A DNA stretch of 64,000 nt from Patescibacteria group bacterium (GCA_018970425.1 JAGWWK010000003.1:10687-74686); one strand, 5' to 3'. Counted from the stretch's first letter, positions 44,058 to 58,987 are shown. Program-made: numbers and translations. The notes: generated by a model from the sequence alone, not told the origin.

Positions 44058-45152
44058 GTGCGATACACTTCCCGTATGCGCGTCGCACGCCTCACGACCT
44101 TTGTTGAGAGGTACCAGCACCAGCTCTCTGTCGGCTCGTTTTTTGTCGGCTTTGCACTAGACACGGTGCTGTTAAAGCGCATCGATCTTTGGGCATCTAA
44201 CGCGCTCCTCATAACGTACCTTGCCATTGCGCTCGCAGTGTTACTCATCCTGCATAGTGCTGCGGCAAGACCACCGCGCTCCGTAGTGCGCGCGCGCATT
44301 CTCGAGTGGCTGCCATTTGTCGCGCAGTTTTCATTCGGAGGAATGTTTTCAGGTTTCCTCATTTTCTATTCGCAGGCGGGTACGTTGAGCGGTTCTTGGC
44401 CTTTTCTTGCTCTTATTGTTGTGCTTATTGTTTGCAATGAGTTCATGCGTTCCTACCAATCGCGATTAACGTATCAAGCAGCGCTCCTATTTTTCTGTCT
44501 CTACTCCTTCTCAATTTATGCGGTTCCCATATTTCTCGGTTCTATGAGCGATCGGATATTTGAGCTTTCAGGAGTTGTTGCTCTTGTGTGCTTTTTTGGT
44601 GTCTACCTGCTACTGCGACTCATCGATGTACGGCGCGTCCGCGCGTCCGCACCAAGCATTGCTGCGTCAGTCCTTGGTATCTACGCGGTCATTACAACGC
44701 TCTATCACACGAACTTTCTGCCGCCGATTCCGCTTTCTCTCAAAGATGTCGGCGTGTACCACGACCTTGAGCGGCGCGGTGGTGTCTATAGTGCATCTGC
44801 CGAGCCTCAGTCCGCGTGGGAGCAGATTACTGGTTTTACGCTGAGTGTAGTACCTGGTGCAGAGCTCTACGCGTACAGCTCGGTATTTGCTCCGACAACA
44901 CTAACCACGAGTATTGTGCATCGGTGGCAGCGCTATGAGGACGATACTTGGGTTACGGTCGCGTCTATTCCTTTCAGCATCATAGGAGGCCGCGATGGTG
45001 GATACCGTGGGTACAGTGCGGTTCCTATTCTTGCTCCCGGGCTCTGGCGAGTATCAGTCGAGACGGTTCGCGGCCAGCGCATCGGTAGTCAGTCATTCAC
45101 TGTTGAGTTTGTGTCCTCGCCAGTAGCTACGGTATCTCGTATACTGCGCTAA
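44058..45152 (+). CDS. hypothetical polytopic membrane protein with a C-terminal extracytoplasmic domain
   Basis: About six hydrophobic helices in the first 200 aa, then a soluble domain. Confidence 0.4.
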   Translation: MRYTSRMRVARLTTFVERYQHQLSVGSFFVGFALDTVLLKRIDLWASNALLITYLAIALAVLLILHSAAARPPRSVVRARILEWLPFVAQFSFGGMFSGFLIFYSQAGTLSGSWPFLALIVVLIVCNEFMRSYQSRLTYQAALLFFCLYSFSIYAVPIFLGSMSDRIFELSGVVALVCFFGVYLLLRLIDVRRVRASAPSIAASVLGIYAVITTLYHTNFLPPIPLSLKDVGVYHDLERRGGVYSASAEPQSAWEQITGFTLSVVPGAELYAYSSVFAPTTLTTSIVHRWQRYEDDTWVTVASIPFSIIGGRDGGYRGYSAVPILAPGLWRVSVETVRGQRIGSQSFTVEFVSSPVATVSRILR

Positions 45153-46147
45153 TGGCAAAAATCTTTAAGTTCTTCTTGTTTTCGATTTCGATCACTGTGA
45201 TCGGTCTCGTTTCTATGTACCTCTTCGGGGGGTGGGCAGCGCTTATGACAACGGTGCTCCTCATTATCCTAGAAATTACACTCTCGTTCGACAATGCAGT
45301 CGTAAATGCTCGTGTATTAAAGCGAATGAGCCCCGTGTGGCAGCAGCGCTTTCTTACGTGGGGTATTGCAATTGCAGTTTTCGGAACTCGATTCGTGCTT
45401 CCGATACTCATCGTTTCAGTGGTGACTTTTTCCTCACCGTGGCTCATTACGCAGATGGCCATCTTTGATCCTGTGCACTATGGAGAACTCCTCCACGAGG
45501 CAGGGTATGCGATTCACTCGTTTGGCGCAGCGTTCCTCGGAATGGTGGCGCTCAAGTACTTCCTTGATGCAGAAAAAGACGTGCACTGGATACGCACCCT
45601 TGAAGCACATCTCACGCAGTGGGGGAGAATAGAAGCTGTTGAAATCGTGGTCCCGCTCGTCGGTATTGCTGTACTTTCATTCTTCGTGCCGTTTGAAGCG
45701 CGCGCTACCGTACTGGTGTCAGGTATTTTCGGTGTCGTTCTTTTTATCGCAATGCAGGGTATTACAAGCGCATTCGCGGTTGAGGCTAAAGAGGTTGGCA
45801 CGCATTCCGCCGCACTCTTTATGTACCTTGAAGTCCTTGATGCCGCATTCTCGCTGGATGGAGTGATTGGTGCCTTCGCACTTACCTCATCGATCCCGAT
45901 TATTGCGGTAGGACTCGGTGTTGGCGCATTCTTCGTACGCTCACTCACTGTGTATATGGTGAAAGAGCGGACACTCGATACTCTGAAGTATCTTGAACAC
46001 GGTGCGCACTGGGCTATATTTGGCCTTTCAGTTTCGATGTTTGCCGCACTCCTGACTGATGTTCCTGAAGTGGTGACTGGCACGATCGGTATTTCTTTTG
46101 TCGTGGCAGCATACTGGTCGTCCGTAGTTGCTCAGCGTACCCAATAG
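45152..46147 (+). CDS. TerC/DUF475-family integral membrane protein
   Basis: 'LLIILEITLSFDNAVVNARVL' contains the TerC-type 'SxDNxxV' motif. Multiple TM helices. Confidence 0.5.
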   Translation: MAKIFKFFLFSISITVIGLVSMYLFGGWAALMTTVLLIILEITLSFDNAVVNARVLKRMSPVWQQRFLTWGIAIAVFGTRFVLPILIVSVVTFSSPWLITQMAIFDPVHYGELLHEAGYAIHSFGAAFLGMVALKYFLDAEKDVHWIRTLEAHLTQWGRIEAVEIVVPLVGIAVLSFFVPFEARATVLVSGIFGVVLFIAMQGITSAFAVEAKEVGTHSAALFMYLEVLDAAFSLDGVIGAFALTSSIPIIAVGLGVGAFFVRSLTVYMVKERTLDTLKYLEHGAHWAIFGLSVSMFAALLTDVPEVVTGTIGISFVVAAYWSSVVAQRTQ

Positions 46148-46338: not shown

Positions 46339-47751
46339 TCAGCGAGTCATACAGGATTGCGGGCGAACTCGAGGGAGGTCCTTCTCAGACCACGCAATAA
46401 TGCCACCTTCGAGCGATACTACATGCGCACCGCGTGCTTGTAGTGCTTGCGTGACGAGCGCGCTCCGGCGCCCAGACGCACAGACTACGTACATACGTTT
46501 GTCCGCATGCGTGGCCAGAAGAGTGTCTATGGCTGCCAGTGCCTCAGTGTGTGGGATGTGGAGTGCTCCAGGGAGGTGCACATCTAAGAATTCATCTGCA
46601 CTCCGTACATCAAGTAGTACGGTATCTGCACGCATTTGTTGTGTGCCGGGTTCATAAAGGTGCGCATGTGCAGTGAGCGCATCAACTGTCGGTATGATTT
46701 CTGAGTCCAGTACGCCCTCAGGGCGAGCAAGGAGCTCCTCATGTTCTATCCTTGGGAAGTCTCCTGGATCGAGGTACTCAAAATATTCATCTATGTACGG
46801 GAGAGGCCCATCAGGGCAGATGAAGACTGTTATTAACTCTCCATGTTTCTGCACAGCGGCATCTAACGAGCCGTCAGTATCCATCCGTTCGAGTTCTGCA
46901 AGAAGACCAGCAAGTGCGAATCCTGAACTGGGACCTCCAAGGATGCCGGCACGAACTAACGCAAGACTTGTCCTGAACGCATCCTTTGTTCCAATTGTGT
47001 GAACGTATTCCGTAACAGCATTCCAAGGAAATGCTATTTGTGACAGTAAGTTCTTGGTCCGTACGCCTGGTACTGGATTATTGGGTGCGCGCACTGCACC
47101 GATAATGCGAACGCCAGGCACGACCGACTTTAGATATGTCCCTATGCCTACAATAGTTCCTGTCGTACCGAGTCCGACGCAGACAATATCAATGCGCGAA
47201 CCTAGTTGCGCGTAGAGCTGTGGACCGGTGACCTGTTCGTGTGCAGCTGGATTAGCGGGATTATCATACTGACCAGGATTGCACCATCCATCTGCAGCTC
47301 CACGCACTCGAGCTTTATAAATTCCACTTGTCGCATCGCGAGGATCTGGACAGATAGGTTCCTCGTTCACCTCAATTTCAGTTCCAAATAGCCTCAAGAG
47401 CGCGAGTTTACCTTTAGACACCTCATGTGAGACGATCGCGCGGGTACGTGGAATACCGAATAATCTCCCGAGTGTGGCGAGAGAGAAGACTGTATTACCG
47501 GACGAGTTCTCTATGAGCGTATGTACTGAGTTGAGCGCACCTCGAGCTGCTGCATCAAGGAGCATCTGGCGCGCGGGTATGGATTTAATGTTTCCAAGGG
47601 GGAGCAAGAACATGCATTTTGCAAAGATGCGAACTCCGCGCTCTGCATATGGGTTGAGCGCAGGGGGTAGTTCAACGAGCGGTAGTGGCGGATGCTTCTC
47701 TGGAGATAAGTACTCGAGGAGCGCATGCGGCCCTGAAAAAACGTTATGCAT
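46339..47751 (-). CDS. PLP-dependent cysteine synthase (CysK/CysM)-like enzyme fused to a C-terminal rhodanese domain
   Basis: Lys-containing 'RIFAKCMFLLPLGNIKSIPARQ' (equivalent to 'KLE..NP.GSvKDR') and the PLP-loop 'ENSSGNT'. The C-terminal rhodanese has 'VLLDVRSADEF' and active-site 'YVVCASGRRS'. Confidence 0.7.
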   Translation of the reverse strand: MHNVFSGPHALLEYLSPEKHPPLPLVELPPALNPYAERGVRIFAKCMFLLPLGNIKSIPARQMLLDAAARGALNSVHTLIENSSGNTVFSLATLGRLFGIPRTRAIVSHEVSKGKLALLRLFGTEIEVNEEPICPDPRDATSGIYKARVRGAADGWCNPGQYDNPANPAAHEQVTGPQLYAQLGSRIDIVCVGLGTTGTIVGIGTYLKSVVPGVRIIGAVRAPNNPVPGVRTKNLLSQIAFPWNAVTEYVHTIGTKDAFRTSLALVRAGILGGPSSGFALAGLLAELERMDTDGSLDAAVQKHGELITVFICPDGPLPYIDEYFEYLDPGDFPRIEHEELLARPEGVLDSEIIPTVDALTAHAHLYEPGTQQMRADTVLLDVRSADEFLDVHLPGALHIPHTEALAAIDTLLATHADKRMYVVCASGRRSALVTQALQARGAHVVSLEGGIIAWSEKDLPRVRPQSCMTR

Positions 47752-48478
47752 ACGAAATGAGGAAATGTGTAAGGTCTCCCATAGATCGGTATGGCTCTCG
47801 CTCTGCAAGCGATTCTTCTAAAAGTAGAAATGTGTCAAAGTCAGGGTCAGGGGCAATGTCGTAGAGCGTACGCACGCCACCATGAAAAAGTACTCGCGCT
47901 CCAGAACGATCTATTTGTATACGTACTTCAGATGGATCAAACAGATACAGTGTCTCGTCTGGGTATGAGGCACTGCGGACCCGTCGCTCAGTGAGTGAGG
48001 GGAGTGGTTGTCCGTGCGCACATGCATCTATCAGATATCCATGCAGTGACCCAACGACGAGCGAGAGTGTTCCGCGCTGGGCGCGGACCCATGAAAGGAG
48101 CTGTGAAAGCGTTTCTTCTGCGTGCGTATGCCAGTTCAGTACCGCGTGACAGAGTACAAGGTCGCCGGGCGCAAGGTGTACATGCTCAAGCACGTCATTA
48201 ATTGAATACTGAAAAATTGCGTGCGGTACATCGTGCAGAGTATGTGCTGCGCGATGACGCATGTCTTCAGACGGATCATATCCGTGCACTGAGCAATTCC
48301 ATGTCCGTGCCAATATGTGAGCTACTCGTGCTTCTCCGCAGCCGATATCGACAATACGCTTTGGGGTAGGCGTGCACTCACGGATGAGTGCACGCGATAT
48401 AAGCGACTCGCGGAGAGCGCCGTGTGGTGTATGTGTCACCGTACGCGCAAATGCACTACCCTGAGTGAACGGGTTCAT
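47744..48478 (-). CDS. class I SAM-dependent methyltransferase (Tam/trans-aconitate-methyltransferase-like)
   Basis: Motif I 'IVDIGCGEARVAHIL' and post-motif II 'LVLCHAVLNWHTHAEE'. ATGA-type overlaps with both neighbours. Confidence 0.6.
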   Translation of the reverse strand: MNPFTQGSAFARTVTHTPHGALRESLISRALIRECTPTPKRIVDIGCGEARVAHILARTWNCSVHGYDPSEDMRHRAAHTLHDVPHAIFQYSINDVLEHVHLAPGDLVLCHAVLNWHTHAEETLSQLLSWVRAQRGTLSLVVGSLHGYLIDACAHGQPLPSLTERRVRSASYPDETLYLFDPSEVRIQIDRSGARVLFHGGVRTLYDIAPDPDFDTFLLLEESLAEREPYRSMGDLTHFLISYA

Positions 48479-48852
48479 ATGCGAAGGAGTGTCAGTGGGA
48501 TAGTGCACGGTGGCGTGGTGTAGTTGTGTCGCGTCGATTTTCTCGGAAAGAGCGTGCCCATTTTGGCGCATGTCATGACACGTTCTTTAGAAACTGGAAT
48601 TGTACGCCGCGCTGTCACTGTAATCGCATCATCAGAAAGGTACGCAACTTCGTGACAGGGTACCTGACCTAAATTGAGGAGTAGTGCGGCTTTGTGCCGA
48701 TGATGGCCGTCGAGTATGGTACGTGACTCAGCGTCTATAAGAATAGGGTGGTCGAACGCACCTGTTCGTAGGAATTGAATGGCGATCTGTAACACTCGTA
48801 GCCATGAGACGCGCTCATGAGGCTTGAGTGACTGTGGTGGATGCAGGGTCAT
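48475..48852 (-). CDS. stand-alone ParB/sulfiredoxin-like (ParBc) domain protein
   Basis: 'HPILIDAESRTILDGHHRHKAALLL' is the ParB N-terminal-domain (DGxHR) motif. There is no HTH or dimerisation region. About 125 aa from the internal ATG at 48852. Confidence 0.5.
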   Translation of the reverse strand: MTLHPPQSLKPHERVSWLRVLQIAIQFLRTGAFDHPILIDAESRTILDGHHRHKAALLLNLGQVPCHEVAYLSDDAITVTARRTIPVSKERVMTCAKMGTLFPRKSTRHNYTTPPCTIPLTLLRI

Positions 48853-48853
48853 A

Positions 48854-49819
48854 TTATCCTTCTTCAATTTGATGCGTGAGATCACCGAGGCGCTCAGCGA
48901 TATATGTCTGCGCCACGTAGGTACGATGAAGTGCGTGCAGGCGCTCTGTTCGGGTCTCGTGTGCACGCGATGCTCGAGCGCGTGTAGCGAGATCCTCGAG
49001 CAGTCTCATATTTTCTGGTAATAGCGCACTACTTTGAAGTGGGGAGCCGCTTCGGTCAGATGCACGGACCGCGGGATCTTCACGAATGTACCCCAGTAGA
49101 TTGGCATCAGAAATGGATTGCTTCAGTAGCGCTACATCCTCGTCACTGCGTACTTTATTACCGAGAACGCACACATATTCCGCTACGCCGGCGCTTTGTG
49201 CGAGCGCGTAGTACTGAGTCCAGACGCCAATGCTACGCTGCGTTGGTTCTACGATGAGTGCGAGTATGTCGAACTGTGCATGCAATGTGTTCGAAAACGC
49301 GTCGACACCGGCGACCATGTCTGCAATAACCCACCCGTCGCGATCATCTATATGTGACAGAATATTTTCGAGTATTGCGAGGTTGTTGTGGTAACACGAT
49401 GCGCCTATGGACTCTTCTTCGTACGACCCTACAACGCCTACTTTCAAGTATTGCGTCCCGGTGAGGTATGGAAGAAGTAGTGTGGGATCAGTGCTCGTGA
49501 TTCGAGGCGATGTGCGTGTTGGTGGCGTCGACTTCACAAAATGTTTCAGAGACTCAATGCGTGGATTGGTAGCCATGAGTGCAGAGCGGATGGCAGTGGC
49601 AGTAGCGGCATGCGAGAGGTGCATGGTTGGTTCTGGAGCAGGAATGCCGAGCAGGGCAGGAAGGTGCATATTTATGTCAGCATCAAATGCCAGCACAGAC
49701 TCTGTACGGAGTATCCGCGAGTGCGCAAAAAGTGCTGCTATGGTGGACTTACCGCTCCCTCCTTTGCCTACAAATGCGACTCGCATAGTAACAGCTATGA
49801 TATCGCGAATAATTCGCAA
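48854..49819 (-). CDS. CooC/MinD-family P-loop ATPase
   Basis: Deviant Walker A 'AFVGKGGSGKSTIAA' and 'VLAFDADINMHLPALLG' (CooC-type 'DADPN.NL'). Walker B hydrophobic strand 'GWVIADMVAGVD'. Confidence 0.6.
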   Translation of the reverse strand: MRIIRDIIAVTMRVAFVGKGGSGKSTIAALFAHSRILRTESVLAFDADINMHLPALLGIPAPEPTMHLSHAATATAIRSALMATNPRIESLKHFVKSTPPTRTSPRITSTDPTLLLPYLTGTQYLKVGVVGSYEEESIGASCYHNNLAILENILSHIDDRDGWVIADMVAGVDAFSNTLHAQFDILALIVEPTQRSIGVWTQYYALAQSAGVAEYVCVLGNKVRSDEDVALLKQSISDANLLGYIREDPAVRASDRSGSPLQSSALLPENMRLLEDLATRARASRAHETRTERLHALHRTYVAQTYIAERLGDLTHQIEEG

Positions 49820-49846
49820 TTGTCAAAGATATCTCTCAGTGATTAA

Positions 49847-50230
49847 ATGCAATCACTGAGTATGCGGCGGCGCACATCTGAGAGAGATGCAATACTGCGA
49901 GTTTTGCAAGAGGCAGAGCGACCACTGACGCCAGCGGGAGTATCTGATTCTGTTGGTCGTACCGCGCATGTGGCCACGGTCTATCGCGCACTTGATGATT
50001 TGGTCGACACTGGCCTTGTGCGAAAAGTAGCGTTAGGTGGCAGAGCTACGTACTATGAGCTTGCGCGTAGCCATCATCATCACATTATCTGCACTCGGTG
50101 TGGCGATATAGAGGACATCCATGAAGAGCCGAAGAAGTTAGACGGGAATGCGCTCAAACAGTCAAAAAAATTCAGCACTATCACATCACATGCTCTCGAA
50201 TTTTTCGGAGTGTGCAAGAATTGCGTCTAG
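49847..50230 (+). CDS. Fur-family metalloregulator (Zur/Fur-like)
   Basis: 'VYRALDDLVDTGLV' winged-helix region. Metal site 'HHHHIICTRCGDIEDI' and C-terminal 'CKNC'. Confidence 0.75.
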   Translation: MQSLSMRRRTSERDAILRVLQEAERPLTPAGVSDSVGRTAHVATVYRALDDLVDTGLVRKVALGGRATYYELARSHHHHIICTRCGDIEDIHEEPKKLDGNALKQSKKFSTITSHALEFFGVCKNCV

Positions 50231-51021
50231 TGCGATTCAAGAAGGGTGAGACTGAGCATAATACCCACGCCTACTAAAAAGGCGAATACTGCAGTGATAG
50301 ATGATGCGACACCCTCACTTTTATGCAGTTCAGGAATTAAGTCAGCTGCAGCGAGGTAGATGAATGCGCCTGCGGTCACTGCGCCTGCGTACGCAGCAAA
50401 GAGTGGAACATCGCTCCCAATGTAGAGCACGAATCCTGCGCCGAGGAGAGCAGTAAGTCCCGATAGAAAATTCCAAAGAAGTGCGGCCCGGCGAGAATAG
50501 CCTGCGTGAATGAGGAGTGCGTAGTCTGCGATTTCTTGCGGTATTTCGTGAAGAAATACGGCAACGGTGGTAGCGACACCGAGTGAAGGTGAGAGCAGGA
50601 AGCTTGCTGCAATGACGGCGCCATCAATCATATTATGAATTCCGTCAGCGACGAGTACGAGTGGGGCAACATGCGCGTGTGAAGGCCCGGACTCAAACTT
50701 TTCATGACCGCTATGCTCGGTTTCCGGGCCGTGGTGCGCGTGGTGCCAGCGTAGGTATCGTTCGAGAATAAAGAAGCTCGAGACACCAGCAAGAGCCGCA
50801 ACTCCGAAGAGGAACCCGTCACCAATGACTTCGAGTGACTCGGGAATCAAGTGTACGAATGCATCCGCAAGAAGCGCACCTGCCGCGAGCGCAACGAGTA
50901 TGCGGACGATGCTTCCTAAGCGCGTGGCATTGAGTGCAAGAGCGGCAACGCCAATAAGTGACACCAGAGAGACCACAAATACCGCAAGCAATGCGAAAAA
51001 GGTAGTTTCCATAGCTCGCAT
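50227..51021 (-). CDS. ZIP-family divalent metal (zinc) transporter
   Basis: 'GIHNMIDGAVIAASF' and 'AVFLHEIPQEIADYALL' (ZIP 'HE.PqE.gDfavL') motifs. Eight TM helices. Convergently overlaps the Fur-family gene by 4 nt. Confidence 0.75.
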   Translation of the reverse strand: MRAMETTFFALLAVFVVSLVSLIGVAALALNATRLGSIVRILVALAAGALLADAFVHLIPESLEVIGDGFLFGVAALAGVSSFFILERYLRWHHAHHGPETEHSGHEKFESGPSHAHVAPLVLVADGIHNMIDGAVIAASFLLSPSLGVATTVAVFLHEIPQEIADYALLIHAGYSRRAALLWNFLSGLTALLGAGFVLYIGSDVPLFAAYAGAVTAGAFIYLAAADLIPELHKSEGVASSITAVFAFLVGVGIMLSLTLLESH

Positions 51022-51035
51022 GCTAGCATGCGAGC

Positions 51036-52106
51036 ATGCGAATTATGGTTCTTGCCTTTCTCGCGCTCTTCCCATTTTCAGTCGCGTATGCGGAGGAGGC
51101 AATTATGCGTGCCACAGTGCTTGAGGTTCGGTCGGAGCGGACTGAGTCACTGCCTGGTATGTATGGAACGCAACAGATTCAAGAGATTGCAGTTGAGCTC
51201 TCTGATGGTTCGCGGGTACTGATTGTAAATGACCGTGTCCCGCTACGGGCGGGGGACCAGTTTTATGCACTGAAAGCAGATAGTGCCGATGGGAGTGTTG
51301 TAACGGTACATGACGTGGATCGTTTGCCAGTGCTTGCTGCGGCCGTGGCGCTGTTTGCTCTCGCGACACTCGTCGTTGGGTGGTGGGTAGGCGCGCGAGC
51401 GCTCATATCGCTCGGTATATCCATAGTCTTTATTCTGTATGTCCTTATTCCGTTACTTGGAGCTGGGTACCCGCCAATTCTTGTGTGCGGCATTGGTGCT
51501 GCCTGTATTTTGGCGATTGCAATGGTGGTAACGCACGGCATGCGCCCGGGGGTGCTCGCGGCATATATAGCCGCGGTCGGTGCAGTATTCATTGCGATTG
51601 GACTTGCAGAAGTATTCGTGGCCGCGGCGCACTTGACCGGTTTTTCAGACTCTGCGGCGGCTATGGTGAGTATCTCGATCGACGGCATCAATATGCAGGG
51701 CCTCCTGCTCGGTGCGATGATTATCGGAGTCTTAGGTATTGTGGACGATCTTGCGGTAACACAAGTCGCGACTGTAGCAGAGCTTGAATCTTCGGGGATT
51801 ACTGGCGGAGCGGAGCTCTATGCACGCGCGATGCATGTGGGGCGCGAGCACTTAGGCGCTGTTGTGAATACACTTGTACTCGCGTACGCAGGAGCATCGC
51901 TCCCGCTTCTCATGCTCTTTGCGTATGCTCCTGCGCCGAGCATGGTGCTCATCAATAGTGAGGTCATTGCGCTTGAAATCGTGCGCGCGGCGGTTGGTGG
52001 CGTGGCTCTCGCTCTTGTGATTCCGGCCGCTACCGCACTCGCGGTATACCTCCTGCGTCGTGGTATTCGGCTTGATACAAGGCACGGGTCTCACGTGGTA
52101 CACTGA
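51036..52106 (+). CDS. YibE/F-like polytopic membrane protein
   Basis: Soluble N-terminal domain of about 90 aa with a signal, then 7-8 TM helices. Family assignment is by architecture only. Confidence 0.4.
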   Translation: MRIMVLAFLALFPFSVAYAEEAIMRATVLEVRSERTESLPGMYGTQQIQEIAVELSDGSRVLIVNDRVPLRAGDQFYALKADSADGSVVTVHDVDRLPVLAAAVALFALATLVVGWWVGARALISLGISIVFILYVLIPLLGAGYPPILVCGIGAACILAIAMVVTHGMRPGVLAAYIAAVGAVFIAIGLAEVFVAAAHLTGFSDSAAAMVSISIDGINMQGLLLGAMIIGVLGIVDDLAVTQVATVAELESSGITGGAELYARAMHVGREHLGAVVNTLVLAYAGASLPLLMLFAYAPAPSMVLINSEVIALEIVRAAVGGVALALVIPAATALAVYLLRRGIRLDTRHGSHVVH

Positions 52107-56964: not shown

Positions 56965-58317
56965 TTATTGCATCACGATATCATGCGACCCGCGGCGCAC
57001 GTCAAACCGAGTCTCAGACGTGTCGAGGTGGAGCCTCAGCCCGGTCTCGCGGAGTCGGGCCTCGATTTCACCTCCCATCGAGAGTGCAAGCGTCCGGAGC
57101 GTAGGATGCACTGTTGATCCCGAGCGAAGTTCCACAAGGTAGACGAGTCCCGGCAGAGTCCCGGTCAAGCGATTTGCAGTACGATATCCCATCGGTATGT
57201 AGTACTGAAGAGTGTCAGGGTCACGATACAGAGCACTGAGGCGCGACTCGTAGGTGCTCAAGAATGTGCGCGCTTCATCACGAAGCGCGTCAGGCATCTC
57301 CTCGAGGTACCACTCCTCAAAGCCGTATGCTGTGGTGAGAAGCGGGATGCGCTGCGCCACCGCGCGGTGGCGTTGAATGTCACGGAATGATCCGAAGTCG
57401 AGTAGATATTCAAACTGGAGTTCGCCGGCTTCATCGAGCATCCGTGGCAACTCCGTTTTTGGGGGTCTGGTTTCAAGAATTACACGATACTCCTTGAGAT
57501 AGGTACGATCGATAGAATCGCGAGTAACTGCGAAAGGTTCCGGCGAAAACTTTCGGTAGTATGCGAGCATCGGCATTGCGGTCTCAAGGTAGGCTTCCGT
57601 TTCGGTATACTGCTTTGTGCTGAAAGAGTTCGGATACGCTGTTTGGAGTGCTGACTCAAGTGCGGCGCCGATGTGGCGCACTTCAAACAGTGGATGATGC
57701 CGGAGTGTTCCGAGTCTGTCGCTAAAAACGCGTAATGGACCGTGCCATGCCAGGTTTGTAGACGCTCCAGCGGGAAGGAATGCGCGCATAGTGTCAAATG
57801 CGCGAGCGAGTATCGCCTTGTCATACATAGTTTGCGACTCCCCCTCGCGAATAGGGTAGCGCCCTTTCAGATACGGCGGCAGAGCTTCGAGCCCGTGGAG
57901 GTAGAACGCACGCAACTCTTCGTGTGCCGCGCGGGAGAGCGATGTTCCAATCGGGTCAATAAATGGTTGCTTGGCGAAGTCGATGTAGCGCGTCGAAGCC
58001 TCTTGGCCATTGTAGAGCCGGAGGTCCTGTAGCGCCTTCGCGGCGAGCATTGAAATGCCCTCAATGAAGACGGTCACTGATCCGAGGTCGCCGATCGACT
58101 TGTGTCCATAGCCGACATAAAACTTAGACATAAAATTATCTGCGCCTTTTTCGGCGAGTACCTTCAGGTGTGAGCGGATACCGCCTATGGAGCGCGAGTG
58201 GAGAGCGGCAAGCATCGCCTGTGCCTCCGGGTCAATGTGCGCGCTCGTGTTTAATACAAGAACTGTAGCTCCCTCGGGAGTCGTACCTTCAGTGTGAACA
58301 ATCTCCTCGAGTGCGGA
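56965..58317 (-). CDS. thyX: FAD-dependent thymidylate synthase ThyX, double-length (tandem ThyX-like domains)
   Basis: First domain: 'GHKSIGDLGSVTVFIEGIS' and 'QEASTRY' (ThyX 'S.RY'). Second domain: 'RAFLPAGASTNLAWHGPLRVFSDRLGTLRHHP' and 'FRDIQRHR' (RHR motif). Start trimmed to avoid overlapping divergent tmk. Confidence 0.6.
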   Translation of the reverse strand, partial: SALEEIVHTEGTTPEGATVLVLNTSAHIDPEAQAMLAALHSRSIGGIRSHLKVLAEKGADNFMSKFYVGYGHKSIGDLGSVTVFIEGISMLAAKALQDLRLYNGQEASTRYIDFAKQPFIDPIGTSLSRAAHEELRAFYLHGLEALPPYLKGRYPIREGESQTMYDKAILARAFDTMRAFLPAGASTNLAWHGPLRVFSDRLGTLRHHPLFEVRHIGAALESALQTAYPNSFSTKQYTETEAYLETAMPMLAYYRKFSPEPFAVTRDSIDRTYLKEYRVILETRPPKTELPRMLDEAGELQFEYLLDFGSFRDIQRHRAVAQRIPLLTTAYGFEEWYLEEMPDALRDEARTFLSTYESRLSALYRDPDTLQYYIPMGYRTANRLTGTLPGLVYLVELRSGSTVHPTLRTLALSMGGEIEARLRETGLRLHLDTSETRFDVRRGSHDIVMQ

Positions 58318-58363
58318 CATGCCCACAGTGTACTCACAAACAACAAAAGGTACACTGTGGACG

Positions 58364-58987
58364 ATGGCACGCGGAGCATTCATCGTTATAGACGGCATGG
58401 ATGGGTCGGGTAAGGGGACGCAAATGCGACTTTTGCAAACGGCGCTCTCAGGGGGCTCGTTCCTCTTTACGCGAGAACCAGGAGGCACTCCACGAGCAGA
58501 GGAGATACGCACCGAGCTTTTGCGGCACGGCGGAGCACCCTCTAACCCGGTGTGCGATTTTTTTCTCTTTTGGGCAGCTCGGGGTTCGCATATCGAAGAC
58601 GCCGTAGAGCCTGCGCGTGCGCGTGGTGTGCACGTAATCTCAGACCGCTACGACTCATCAACATTTGCGTTTCAGATTTACGGTGAGGAACACCGCGCGC
58701 TCGAGCCGGTCTTTCATGCAGTTCGTTCGTCGCTCCCGGAGTACTATCGCCCTGACGCGTACATCATTCTCGATCTCCCAGCAGAGGTCGCCTTTAAACG
58801 CAGGACGGCGGATGTAGCACAAGAAAAGTCAAAGTTTGATGTCCGTCCCATCGCGTACCACCAGCGAGTGCGTGACGGTTTTTTGGCACTTACGTCGTTT
58901 GCGCCTACGCACTATATTGATGCGAATCGCACACCTGAAGAAATGCATCGAGACGTGCTACGCGTAGTCTCCGCATGTGCCGTATAA
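58364..58987 (+). CDS. tmk: thymidylate kinase
   Basis: P-loop 'FIVIDGMDGSGKGTQ', 'REPGGT' and 'DRY' motifs. Confidence 0.85.
   Translation: MARGAFIVIDGMDGSGKGTQMRLLQTALSGGSFLFTREPGGTPRAEEIRTELLRHGGAPSNPVCDFFLFWAARGSHIEDAVEPARARGVHVISDRYDSSTFAFQIYGEEHRALEPVFHAVRSSLPEYYRPDAYIILDLPAEVAFKRRTADVAQEKSKFDVRPIAYHQRVRDGFLALTSFAPTHYIDANRTPEEMHRDVLRVVSACAV

Follow-up and report, generated by a model that had tools for sequence, protein, structure and literature searches.

A Fur-associated CooC-like ATPase and PLP-rhodanese enzyme pair in Patescibacteria, with a candidate half-size serine kinase

We describe a predicted metal-responsive operon in a 64,000 nucleotide (nt) stretch of DNA from a Patescibacteria group bacterium (GCA_018970425.1, JAGWWK010000003.1:10687-74686), below called the window, with positions counted from its first letter. 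The operon is located on the minus strand at 46339-49786 and encodes a CooC-type ATPase, a 125 amino acid (aa) protein with a ParB/sulfiredoxin (Srx) fold, an S-adenosylmethionine (SAM) dependent methyltransferase, and PLP-Rhd, an enzyme with a pyridoxal phosphate (PLP) domain and a rhodanese domain. Judged from gene neighbourhoods, the conserved unit is a Fur-family regulator, the CooC-like ATPase and PLP-Rhd. We consider it likely that the operon follows a serine to O-phospho-L-serine (OPS) to PLP β-replacement logic under metal control. With somewhat less than even confidence, we suggest that the adjacent Fur-family protein represses the operon until metal is scarce, and that the operon then turns serine into a β-substituted alanine that contains sulfur.

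An alignment of PLP-Rhd was used to scan one genome per species, and neighbouring genes were tabulated in 80 loci, called from six-frame open reading frames (ORFs) by phmmer with the window's own proteins. The ATPase gene is located immediately upstream of PLP-Rhd in 50 of the 52 full-length loci (group A), and in 48 of these 50 the gap between the two genes is -7 to +30 nt. The loci with this core pair are almost all from Patescibacteria, among them Saccharibacteria, Paceibacteria, Woesebacteria, Dojkabacteria, Peribacteria, Berkelbacteria, Uhrbacteria and others. It should be noted that several taxon labels of metagenome-assembled genomes (MAGs) are unreliable. The linkage of the pair is far above chance, because the genes are adjacent across many candidate phyla while their flanks are otherwise unconserved. 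A Fur-family gene adjoins the core pair in 37/52 loci, and the only other recurrent neighbour is a gene for a YibE/F-family protein, found beside Fur or the core pair in 10/52.

The four-gene set, proposed in a preliminary description of this DNA as a unit that might co-occur across genomes, was rejected as the conserved unit from the 80-locus tabulation. Among the 46 full-length loci of the genome scan the kinase candidate (the 125 aa protein, see below) is absent from all, and the methyltransferase is present in one only, L029, in the order COG0523-ATPase-methyltransferase-PLP-Rhd. Close relatives (L170, L171) are the only other loci with the full four-gene order, and a three-gene form, ATPase-kinase-PLP-Rhd, is found in L090 and L099. 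We regard the kinase and the methyltransferase as lineage-specific accessories inserted between the core genes. Zinc related neighbours are found in few loci only: ZnuA in one, COG0523 in two and CDF in two distinct ones. L014 has ZnuA and Fur upstream and COG0523 and CDF nearby, and L002 has CDF. We found no ZIP homologue in the other loci; a ZIP gene is located near the module here only. The broader expectation of an uncharacterised, conserved and metal-linked system was borne out by the Fur linkage, by an operator in the operon promoter and by ZIP, ZnuA, COG0523 and CDF genes nearby.

The features of the locus are as follows.
46339-47751, minus strand: PLP-Rhd, fold-type II PLP domain of the CysK superfamily (Pfam PALP, 3.9e-41) plus rhodanese (Pfam Rhodanese, 2e-15); core gene 2.
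47744-48478, minus strand: SAM methyltransferase, CmoM/SmtA-like (Pfam Methyltransf_12/23/25/11); lineage-specific accessory.
48475-48852, minus strand: mini-SerK, candidate free L-serine kinase of 125 aa, ParB/Srx fold (NCBIfam SerK, E=1e-6); accessory.
48854-49786, minus strand: CooC-type ATPase (SIMIBI, deviant Walker A; Pfam CbiA); core gene 1.
49797-49826, minus strand: predicted operon promoter, -35 TTGACA, 18-nt spacer, -10 TATCAT.
49804-49818, no strand assigned: putative Fur-family operator TGCGAATTATTCGCG, a 6-3-6 palindrome within the promoter spacer.
49835-49860, no strand assigned: second palindrome CTCAGTGATT-N6-AATCACTGAG with 10-bp arms, flagged as an 11-pair stem.
49862-50230, plus strand: Fur-family metalloregulator (Pfam FUR, 4e-19), divergent from the operon.
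50227-51021, minus strand: ZIP (ZupT-like) divalent-metal importer (Pfam Zip, 2.1e-39); context gene.
51036-52106, plus strand: YibE/F-family membrane protein (Pfam YibE_F, 6.2e-54); recurrent neighbour.

All four minus-strand ORFs of the preliminary description are present in the window, and its domain calls (PALP plus rhodanese, methyltransferase, ParB/Srx fold and CbiA/MinD/CooC-type ATPase) were upheld. The products of three of the four genes are identical to NCBI proteins MBU6310772-774 from a Patescibacteria MAG. The ATPase gene had been placed at 48854-49819; its end stands, but its product is identical to MBU6310775 only with the start at ATG 49786, not TTG 49819. Read from this ATG the N-terminus is MRVAFVGKGG, and all 43 aligned homologues begin M-R-I-A-F-V-G-K-G-G here. 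Because of this exact identity and the agreement of the homologues, the start is almost certainly ATG 49786. The 33 bases between the two codons contain the promoter and the operator. The Fur gene was likewise found as described, but its start is likely 49862 rather than 49847, as in the 122-aa NCBI form. Linkage of all four genes by overlapping codons holds for two junctions, kinase/methyltransferase (ATGA at 48475-48478, 4-nt overlap) and methyltransferase/PLP-Rhd (ATGCATAA at 47744-47751, 8-nt overlap), but the ATPase stop and kinase start are joined as TAA-T-ATG, with a 1-nt gap. The Fur and ZIP genes were both said to read divergently from the operon. This is true of Fur, but ZIP, a minus-strand gene, runs towards the Fur gene and overlaps it by 4 nt.

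The best PDB sequence match of PLP-Rhd is 8h4q/8h4h with E=5e-87, sixty orders of magnitude ahead of the others; CysM and CysK are next. The 8h4q and 8h4h entries are aspergillomarasmine A (AMA) synthetase, apo and with O-phosphoserine, and Foldseek matched them with E=2.5e-44 over 488 columns at approximately 36% identity. By sequence comparison, PLP-Rhd is a bacterial homologue of the fungal AMA synthase, an OPS-using enzyme. Fda4, another fungal PLP enzyme, also has a rhodanese-like domain; it condenses OPS and L-alanine and barely accepts O-acetylserine (PMC12751119). PLP-Rhd has at least 755 homologues. It scores 120.7 bits against the NCBIfam cut-off of 344 for cysKM, 108 against 394 for cysM, 101.6 against 351 for cysK and 107 against 350 for SbnA, and the CBS threshold is likewise far from reached. 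With the curated cut-offs missed approximately 3-fold, an identity as ordinary CysK, CysM or SbnA was rejected. The earlier view that the protein is cysteine-synthase-like, not an ordinary CysK/CysM, agrees with these scores (101-121 bits against cut-offs of 344-394).

Residues K56, C134, R221, R231, S275, C424 and C467 are essentially invariant in the 52 full-length group A loci, and the ENSSGNT and GLGTTGT loops are conserved. The question of whether the PLP lysine and the rhodanese cysteine are conserved was raised in the preliminary description, and both are: the Schiff-base lysine K56 in 51/52 loci and C424 in 51/51. C134 is located in the motif EPICPDP and C467 in a terminal RPxxC tail, and both are invariant wherever a group A sequence covers those positions. 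The six-residue catalytic loop of the rhodanese, C-x-x-G-x-[R/T/K/S]-[S/T], is conserved, and D381 and R383 are invariant. AMA synthase lacks C134 (aligned residues psqPaPnD), has the rhodanese loop CYNGDTA without a basic residue, and its alignment stops short of the RPxxC tail. PLP-only relatives lack all three cysteines, C134, C424 and C467.

Homologues with the PLP domain only (no rhodanese, no Cys134, approximately 50% identity) are found within arsenic-resistance operons of Rhodobacteraceae and other proteobacterial MAGs (L056-L089, e.g. L063:7263-8647, L079:1933-3729 and L072:5567-5986). Their neighbours encode ArsR, ArsD, ArsA, a MIP channel and a class I/II aminotransferase. We know of no arsenic-resistance role for an AMA-synthase-like PLP enzyme.

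The ATPase family profile matched CooC1 (3kje) in the PDB with 1.9e-24, followed by MinD (9e-10) and ArsA (2e-7). An ArsA-like or MinD-like ATPase was rejected on these far weaker scores. The residues GasCYHnn of the ATPase align on GsqCYCre of CooC, which places C131-Y-H133 at the CxC metal site of CooC. In 43 sequences, G7-K8-G9-G10-x-G12-K13-x-T15 (GKGGSGKST in the window) is invariant, as are C131, H133, H145 and H287. JGI labels relatives of this ATPase as CO dehydrogenase maturation factor; no CO dehydrogenase gene was found among the conserved neighbours of the module. From these alignments the ATPase is predicted to be a metallochaperone-like protein, a Cys-x-His variant of the CooC type. 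In L014 (6586-7942) we observed a divergent 279-aa CooC-like ATPase that keeps C-A-H, and an unannotated 180-aa ORF between ATPase and PLP-Rhd.

The 125-aa protein gave no Pfam match, and its sole NCBIfam match is the ADP-dependent L-serine kinase SerK (E=1e-6). As a single sequence it matched only SerK entries and a Pyrococcus homologue in the PDB, and a profile of 16 homologues matched SerK (1e-14), 1vk1 and SbnI (1e-6) and nothing else at E≤1. The AlphaFold2 model has a predicted local distance difference test score of 95. Foldseek ranks 1-9 of the model are all SerK, 1vk1 or SbnI, with query template modelling (TM) scores of 0.71-0.88, whereas ParB, Noc and Srx superpose poorly (TM ≤0.5). 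The segment LKPHERV aligns on MKPHEQL of SerK, so that Glu13 corresponds to the catalytic Glu30, the residue altered in SerK entries 5x0j and 5x0e (E30Q, E30A). H12, E13 and the residues of the DGHHR nucleotide motif, D48, G49, H50, H51 and R52, are invariant in the 16 homologues, and a C-terminal K-x-T-x-H motif, K-T-T-R-H in SerK, is invariant in the family. By model and profiles, the protein belongs to the SerK/SbnI clade of free serine kinases, at half their size, and is a candidate kinase; membership is by fold and motifs and not by architecture, as approximately 90 residues of the second domain are absent. The protein had been read as a ParB-like nucleic acid or nucleotide binding module, which the profile matches to free serine kinases only, the superposition on SerK/SbnI (TM 0.81-0.88) and the poor superposition on ParB, Noc and Srx contradict. 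SerK forms O-phosphoserine for cysteine synthesis (PMC5120207). SbnI, a bacterial homologue of the serine kinases, has the same fold, and the title of a 2018 paper says that it generates OPS for staphyloferrin B (PMC12704722).

The mini-kinase family comprises 1288 representative clusters at E≤1e-10, mostly of 115-160 aa; the clusters are at 50% identity and the number is a lower bound. At least 584 metagenome stretches match it. A PLP homologue is found within 19 of 80 mini-kinase metagenome loci, and a 371-aa PLP cluster in 15. The mini-kinase is fused to PALP in P0296 and P0325, and to a class-V aminotransferase in one representative. A PAPS reductase gene is located beside kinase and PLP genes in L095 and L122, and a DapF-like diaminopimelate (DAP) epimerase gene in L103 and L130. 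In L093, an Orn/DAP decarboxylase, a PALP-rhodanese protein, a class-V aminotransferase and Fur are encoded near the mini-kinase. Distant homologues from a word-based search are found in unrelated contexts, beside TIM, an ATP-grasp enzyme or RNase III; these appeared to oppose a linkage to PLP enzymes until the larger metagenome scan. By recurrent adjacency or fusion, the mini-kinase is, on comparative grounds, functionally tied to PLP enzymes. Annotation pipelines label mini-kinases as ParB N-terminal domain-containing protein or hypothetical protein, and JGI names one close homologue L-serine kinase.

Two other observations were made on this family. Further fusions join the mini-kinase to an NTP-transferase and to an NAD-binding oxidoreductase domain (L090-L169; P0264-P0411). 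A ThyX gene adjoins the mini-kinase in 14 metagenome loci; the window has a ThyX-like ORF at 56965-58512, minus strand, of 515 aa, unusually long for a flavin-dependent thymidylate synthase, with a Thy1 domain at residues 95-294 only.

The methyltransferase aligns full-length to CmoM (8joz/4htf, E~2e-13). Its best NCBIfam matches are CmoM, Tam and BioC, all far under cut-off. Only L029 and two close relatives, L170 and L171, have a homologue at the same position.

The operon promoter has the -35 box TTGACA at 49826-49821 and the -10 box TATCAT at 49802-49797, matching 11/12 consensus positions, and is one of only two promoter-like sites in 5.2 kb. Approximately 10 nt separate it from the ATPase ATG downstream, which leaves a very short leader. 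From sequence, a single strong predicted σ70-type promoter with an operator in its spacer drives the four translationally linked genes. The operator family has the consensus TTGCAA-N5-TTGCAA, i.e. TGCRAA-N3-TTYGCA, and TGCGAATTATTCGCG at 49804-49818 is the only exact match in the window. With up to one mismatch no other site was found in the window, including before ZIP, YibE/F and DUF475, except a chance-level one at 1943. The preliminary description had named the spacer 49820-49846 as the place to look for a Fur or Zur box; the operator is instead located at 49804-49818. With up to one mismatch the operator is found upstream of the ATPase in 14/45 sequences (0.03 expected). It is present in 27 of 50 group A loci scanned, and by table reading approximately 31 of 42 matches fall within Fur, ATPase or YibE-F promoter regions, often as two copies. 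Judged from the coordinates, it falls within or borders the intergenic region between YibE-F and Fur in L028, L039 and L052.

The regulator is a Fur-family protein (Pfam FUR, 69 bits against 23) with the CxxC pairs CTRC and CKNC. Its PDB matches, Fur, PerR, Zur (FurB) and the metal-uptake regulator 3eyy, which we take to be Nur, all fall within 1e-13 to 1e-9, and an assignment to the Fur, Zur, PerR or Nur class by sequence was given up on these similar E-values. The operator consensus and its 6-5-6 spacing equal those of the Streptomyces Nur box, tTGCaa-N5-ttGCAA (PMC2691836). The likeness to a Nur or Zur regulon lies in a Fur-family repressor, a Nur-box-like operator and, in some loci, the Zur-type neighbours COG0523, ZnuA and ZIP. 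In contrast to Nur, the wing VRKVALGGRATYYEL of the regulator has no His where Nur has His70 and His72 of its Ni site (His70, His72, His126), as compared by eye and not by formal alignment. By analogy, zinc would fit the ZIP, ZnuA and COG0523 neighbours, and nickel would fit the CooC homology and the Nur-like box. The palindrome CTCAGTGATT-N6-AATCACTGAG directly before the fur ATG at 49862 may either serve in autoregulation of fur or form a hairpin in its leader.

A perfect 20-bp palindrome, CTCGCATGCTAGCATGCGAG, at 51015-51034 fills the 14-bp gap between ZIP and YibE/F and overlaps both divergent gene starts. Directly after it, ATGCGAATTAT repeats the left half of the operon operator. This palindrome is a possible second regulatory site. 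Just past the end of the operon, on the opposite strand, are genes encoding a DUF475/TerC-family membrane protein (45152-46147, plus strand) and a DUF2914 protein (44058-45152, plus strand), neither conserved beside the module in other loci. TerC relatives are associated with metal export. The window encodes a serine hydroxymethyltransferase, a local source of serine. The remainder is ordinary candidate-phyla housekeeping, with pilus genes, RuvAB, PolA and tRNA synthetases.

The SbnI-SbnA pair of Staphylococcus aureus resembles the arrangement here, in that a ParB-fold serine kinase supplies OPS to a CysK-superfamily PLP enzyme of the same operon. The sbn operon is iron/Fur-regulated. In comparison with SbnI, the kinase here is 125 and not approximately 250 aa and lacks the C-terminal/heme-regulatory part. 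Unlike SbnA, whose cut-off it misses (107 against 350 bits), the PLP enzyme carries a rhodanese; the SbnB-H synthetases are absent and the CooC-like ATPase is the constant partner. Mycobacterium tuberculosis uses the CysM-CysO-MoeZ system, in which the C-terminus of a protein-bound sulfur donor enters the active site of an OPS-dependent CysK-family enzyme and a rhodanese acts upstream. CysM of this species is among the fold matches of PLP-Rhd, at 28-30% identity. There is no ubiquitin-like CysO or adenylating MoeZ here; instead, PLP-Rhd itself includes the rhodanese and a putative carrier tail. The ATPase resembles CooC in its best profile match (1.9e-24), its deviant Walker A and the position of its metal motif, and differs in having Cys-x-His instead of Cys-x-Cys, approximately 60 extra C-terminal residues, no CO dehydrogenase nearby and a PLP partner.

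SerK and O-phosphoserine sulfhydrylase of Thermococcus kodakarensis share the serine to OPS to cysteine logic (PMC5120207). The mini-kinase keeps KPHE (Glu30), DGHHR and the C-terminal K-T-T-R-H motif of SerK, whereas its host is bacterial (Patescibacteria), a metalloregulator is in control, and the candidate sulfhydrylase carries a fused rhodanese. AMA synthase of Aspergillus oryzae (8H4H/8H4Q) and Fda4 of Fusarium have the same architecture of PALP and rhodanese-like domains and are OPS-dependent. Unlike the Patescibacteria module, they form C-N bonds and have neither an ATPase partner nor Fur control.

We suggest the following mechanism, of which derepression, the formation of OPS and a β-replacement on it are the well-supported part. 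Loss of the metal co-repressor would derepress the operon. The mini-kinase would phosphorylate free L-serine to OPS, from which the PLP domain would eliminate phosphate to give an aminoacrylate. A persulfide formed on Cys424 of the rhodanese would be handed to Cys467 on the RPxxC tail, which could reach into the PLP site in the manner of the CysO C-terminus in mycobacterial CysM. Attack on the aminoacrylate would leave an enzyme-bound cysteinyl disulfide, and Cys134, presumably at the active-site entrance by analogy with CysK, would resolve it and free cysteine or cysteine persulfide. The CooC-like ATPase would bind metal at a Cys2His2 site in its dimer interface and couple the thiol or sulfur output to metal handling, i.e. 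metal delivery, buffering or metal-sulfur assembly. In this lineage only, the CmoM-like methyltransferase would modify the product or an intermediate.

That sulfur is the nucleophile in this scheme is a call at somewhat less than even odds. We favour it because the rhodanese is canonical and invariant and two more cysteines are invariant only together with the rhodanese and the ATPase partner, and because the C-terminal cysteine tail could deliver a persulfide and relatives are found beside PAPS reductase. Several points weigh against the scheme. The proposed Cys134/Cys424/Cys467 relay has conservation as its sole basis. AMA synthase, the nearest characterised homologue, forms C-N and not C-S bonds, and we found no recurrent sulfur-source, thioredoxin or exporter family among the neighbours of the module. 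SerK residues approximately 116-203, approximately 90 residues of its second domain, have no counterpart in the mini-kinase, where just the last helix, bearing the K-T-T-R-H motif, is retained. The mini-kinase has 125 aa against approximately 240 aa for the two-domain architecture, and its NCBIfam SerK score is 28 bits with a cut-off of 380; its activity or substrate may therefore differ. We know of no clear precedent for a cysteine-making pathway under a metalloregulator, and Fur- or Zur-controlled OPS-dependent CysK-like enzymes do have precedents in chelator synthesis, that of staphyloferrin B and of EDDS. No cysteine-synthesis precedent explains the role of the ATPase, which is the least explained element under sulfur and chelator readings alike.

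The preliminary description had offered a metallophore or a thio-cofactor pathway, and both are still live readings. An AMA-like metallophore pathway is a strong rival by homology and metal context, although well short of even odds: PLP-Rhd would condense OPS once or twice with the amine of an amino acid, e.g. Asp, to an aminopolycarboxylate for Zn, Ni or Co, the methyltransferase would esterify a carboxylate, YibE/F or ZIP would move chelator or metal, and the CooC-like ATPase would take metal off the chelate and pass it to apo-proteins. AMA synthase is the closest solved homologue by a wide margin and has the same two domains. AMA is a natural Zn2+-selective aminopolycarboxylate (PMC8319579), and one enzyme alone is enough to make toxin A and AMA from OPS and Asp, much as Fda4 joins OPS and Ala (PMC12751119). 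Fur-family control and the metal transporter and chaperone neighbours are consistent with this, as is the precedent of SbnI/SbnA, where a serine kinase supplies an OPS-dependent CysK-like enzyme for the synthesis of a siderophore. So are the DapF-like epimerase by kinase and PLP genes (L103, L130) and the Orn/DAP decarboxylase with Fur (L093). Staphylopine and staphyloferrin B pathways employ epimerase and decarboxylase enzymes of such kinds. The best methyltransferase matches, CmoM, Tam and BioC, are all carboxyl methyltransferases. The metallophore pathway leaves the canonical rhodanese site and the three invariant cysteines, which PLP-only relatives lack, without explanation. No dedicated exporter or chelate importer is conserved among the module neighbours, and identity to AMA synthase is only approximately 36% (Foldseek), a range where nucleophile specificity often shifts. 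We also know of no counterpart of the ATPase in AMA, Sbn or EDDS clusters.

Less probable is a machine for metal-sulfur or metal-site assembly, parallel to the Mrp/NBP35 Fe-S carriers and to Ni insertion by CooC. The CooC-like dimer would be scaffold or carrier at its Cys2His2 interface, PLP-Rhd would be the sulfur or thiolate donor or a metallated client through its three cysteines, and OPS-derived cysteine would be an intermediate. The near-obligate, translationally coupled pairing, the C-x-H exactly at the CooC metal site with more invariant His, and the three cysteines that accompany the ATPase partner and that unpaired relatives lack would fit, as would the Fur-family control known from SUF systems. 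However, the conserved neighbours include no target metalloenzyme, the PLP domain is of β-replacement type and not a cysteine desulfurase, the serine kinase points to net amino acid synthesis, and a complex of ATPase and PLP-Rhd is a supposition. An ordinary cysteine synthase, with the rhodanese assimilating thiosulfate and unrelated housekeeping neighbours, has in its favour the CysK-superfamily fold and CysM and CysK as next-best PDB matches; it is very improbable and largely refuted by scores approximately one third of the curated cut-offs, by ATPase adjacency in 50/52 loci of many candidate phyla with otherwise unconserved flanks, by the shared operator and by the recurrent kinase linkage. 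We give even less credence to the suggestion of metal-dependent nucleic-acid thiolation and methylation of Dnd/Ssp/Tus type, with the ParB-like protein as nucleic-acid binder. It would draw on a superficial mix of sulfur relay, ParB fold, ATPase and methylase, and on CmoM, the best solved homologue of the methyltransferase, acting on tRNA. But the ParB-fold protein belongs to a small-molecule kinase clade and has, in 125 aa, no helix-turn-helix or other DNA-binding domain, kinase and methyltransferase are dispensable in most loci, and the PLP enzyme is no desulfurase. PADLOC models gave no matches to PLP-Rhd, kinase or ATPase, and only a generic domain match to the methyltransferase. A defence or DNA-modification system was rejected on this result.

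We found no published description of the module in the literature searched, including searches for YibE/F and for a Patescibacteria cysteine synthase/rhodanese module. Each protein family is already known, as is a serine kinase that feeds an OPS-dependent CysK-like enzyme (Sbn, Thermococcus). Three features appear to be new. One is that across the candidate phyla radiation a Cys-x-His CooC-type ATPase and the AMA-synthase-like PLP-Rhd form a near-obligate pair under a Fur-family operator; the others are the signature of three cysteines and the family of half-size serine kinases.

Patescibacteria are regarded as lacking almost every biosynthetic pathway. In many of them the Fur-family regulator appears to have this module as its main recurrent target, and the module bears on how ultra-small, host-dependent bacteria respond to metal scarcity and on whether they produce cysteine or a chelator of their own. 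We speculate, with limited confidence, that it is a widespread Fur-controlled two-protein device in which the AMA-synthase-like enzyme makes a phosphoserine-derived metal ligand, of AMA type or a thiol analogue, and a new Cys2His2 CooC-type ATPase traffics the metal. If true, the candidate phyla radiation would have its first described metallophore or metallochaperone system, from whose bacterial form the fungal AMA pathway would descend; in some lineages a half-size serine kinase family, not recognised before, would feed it. AMA inhibits metallo-β-lactamases, and the link from its fungal enzyme to a large bacterial family offers a source of new OPS-dependent C-S or C-N biocatalysts. The Cys-x-His form would extend the CooC family beyond nickel insertion into CO dehydrogenase, and the mini-kinase family suggests that phosphoserine production may be compact and widespread.

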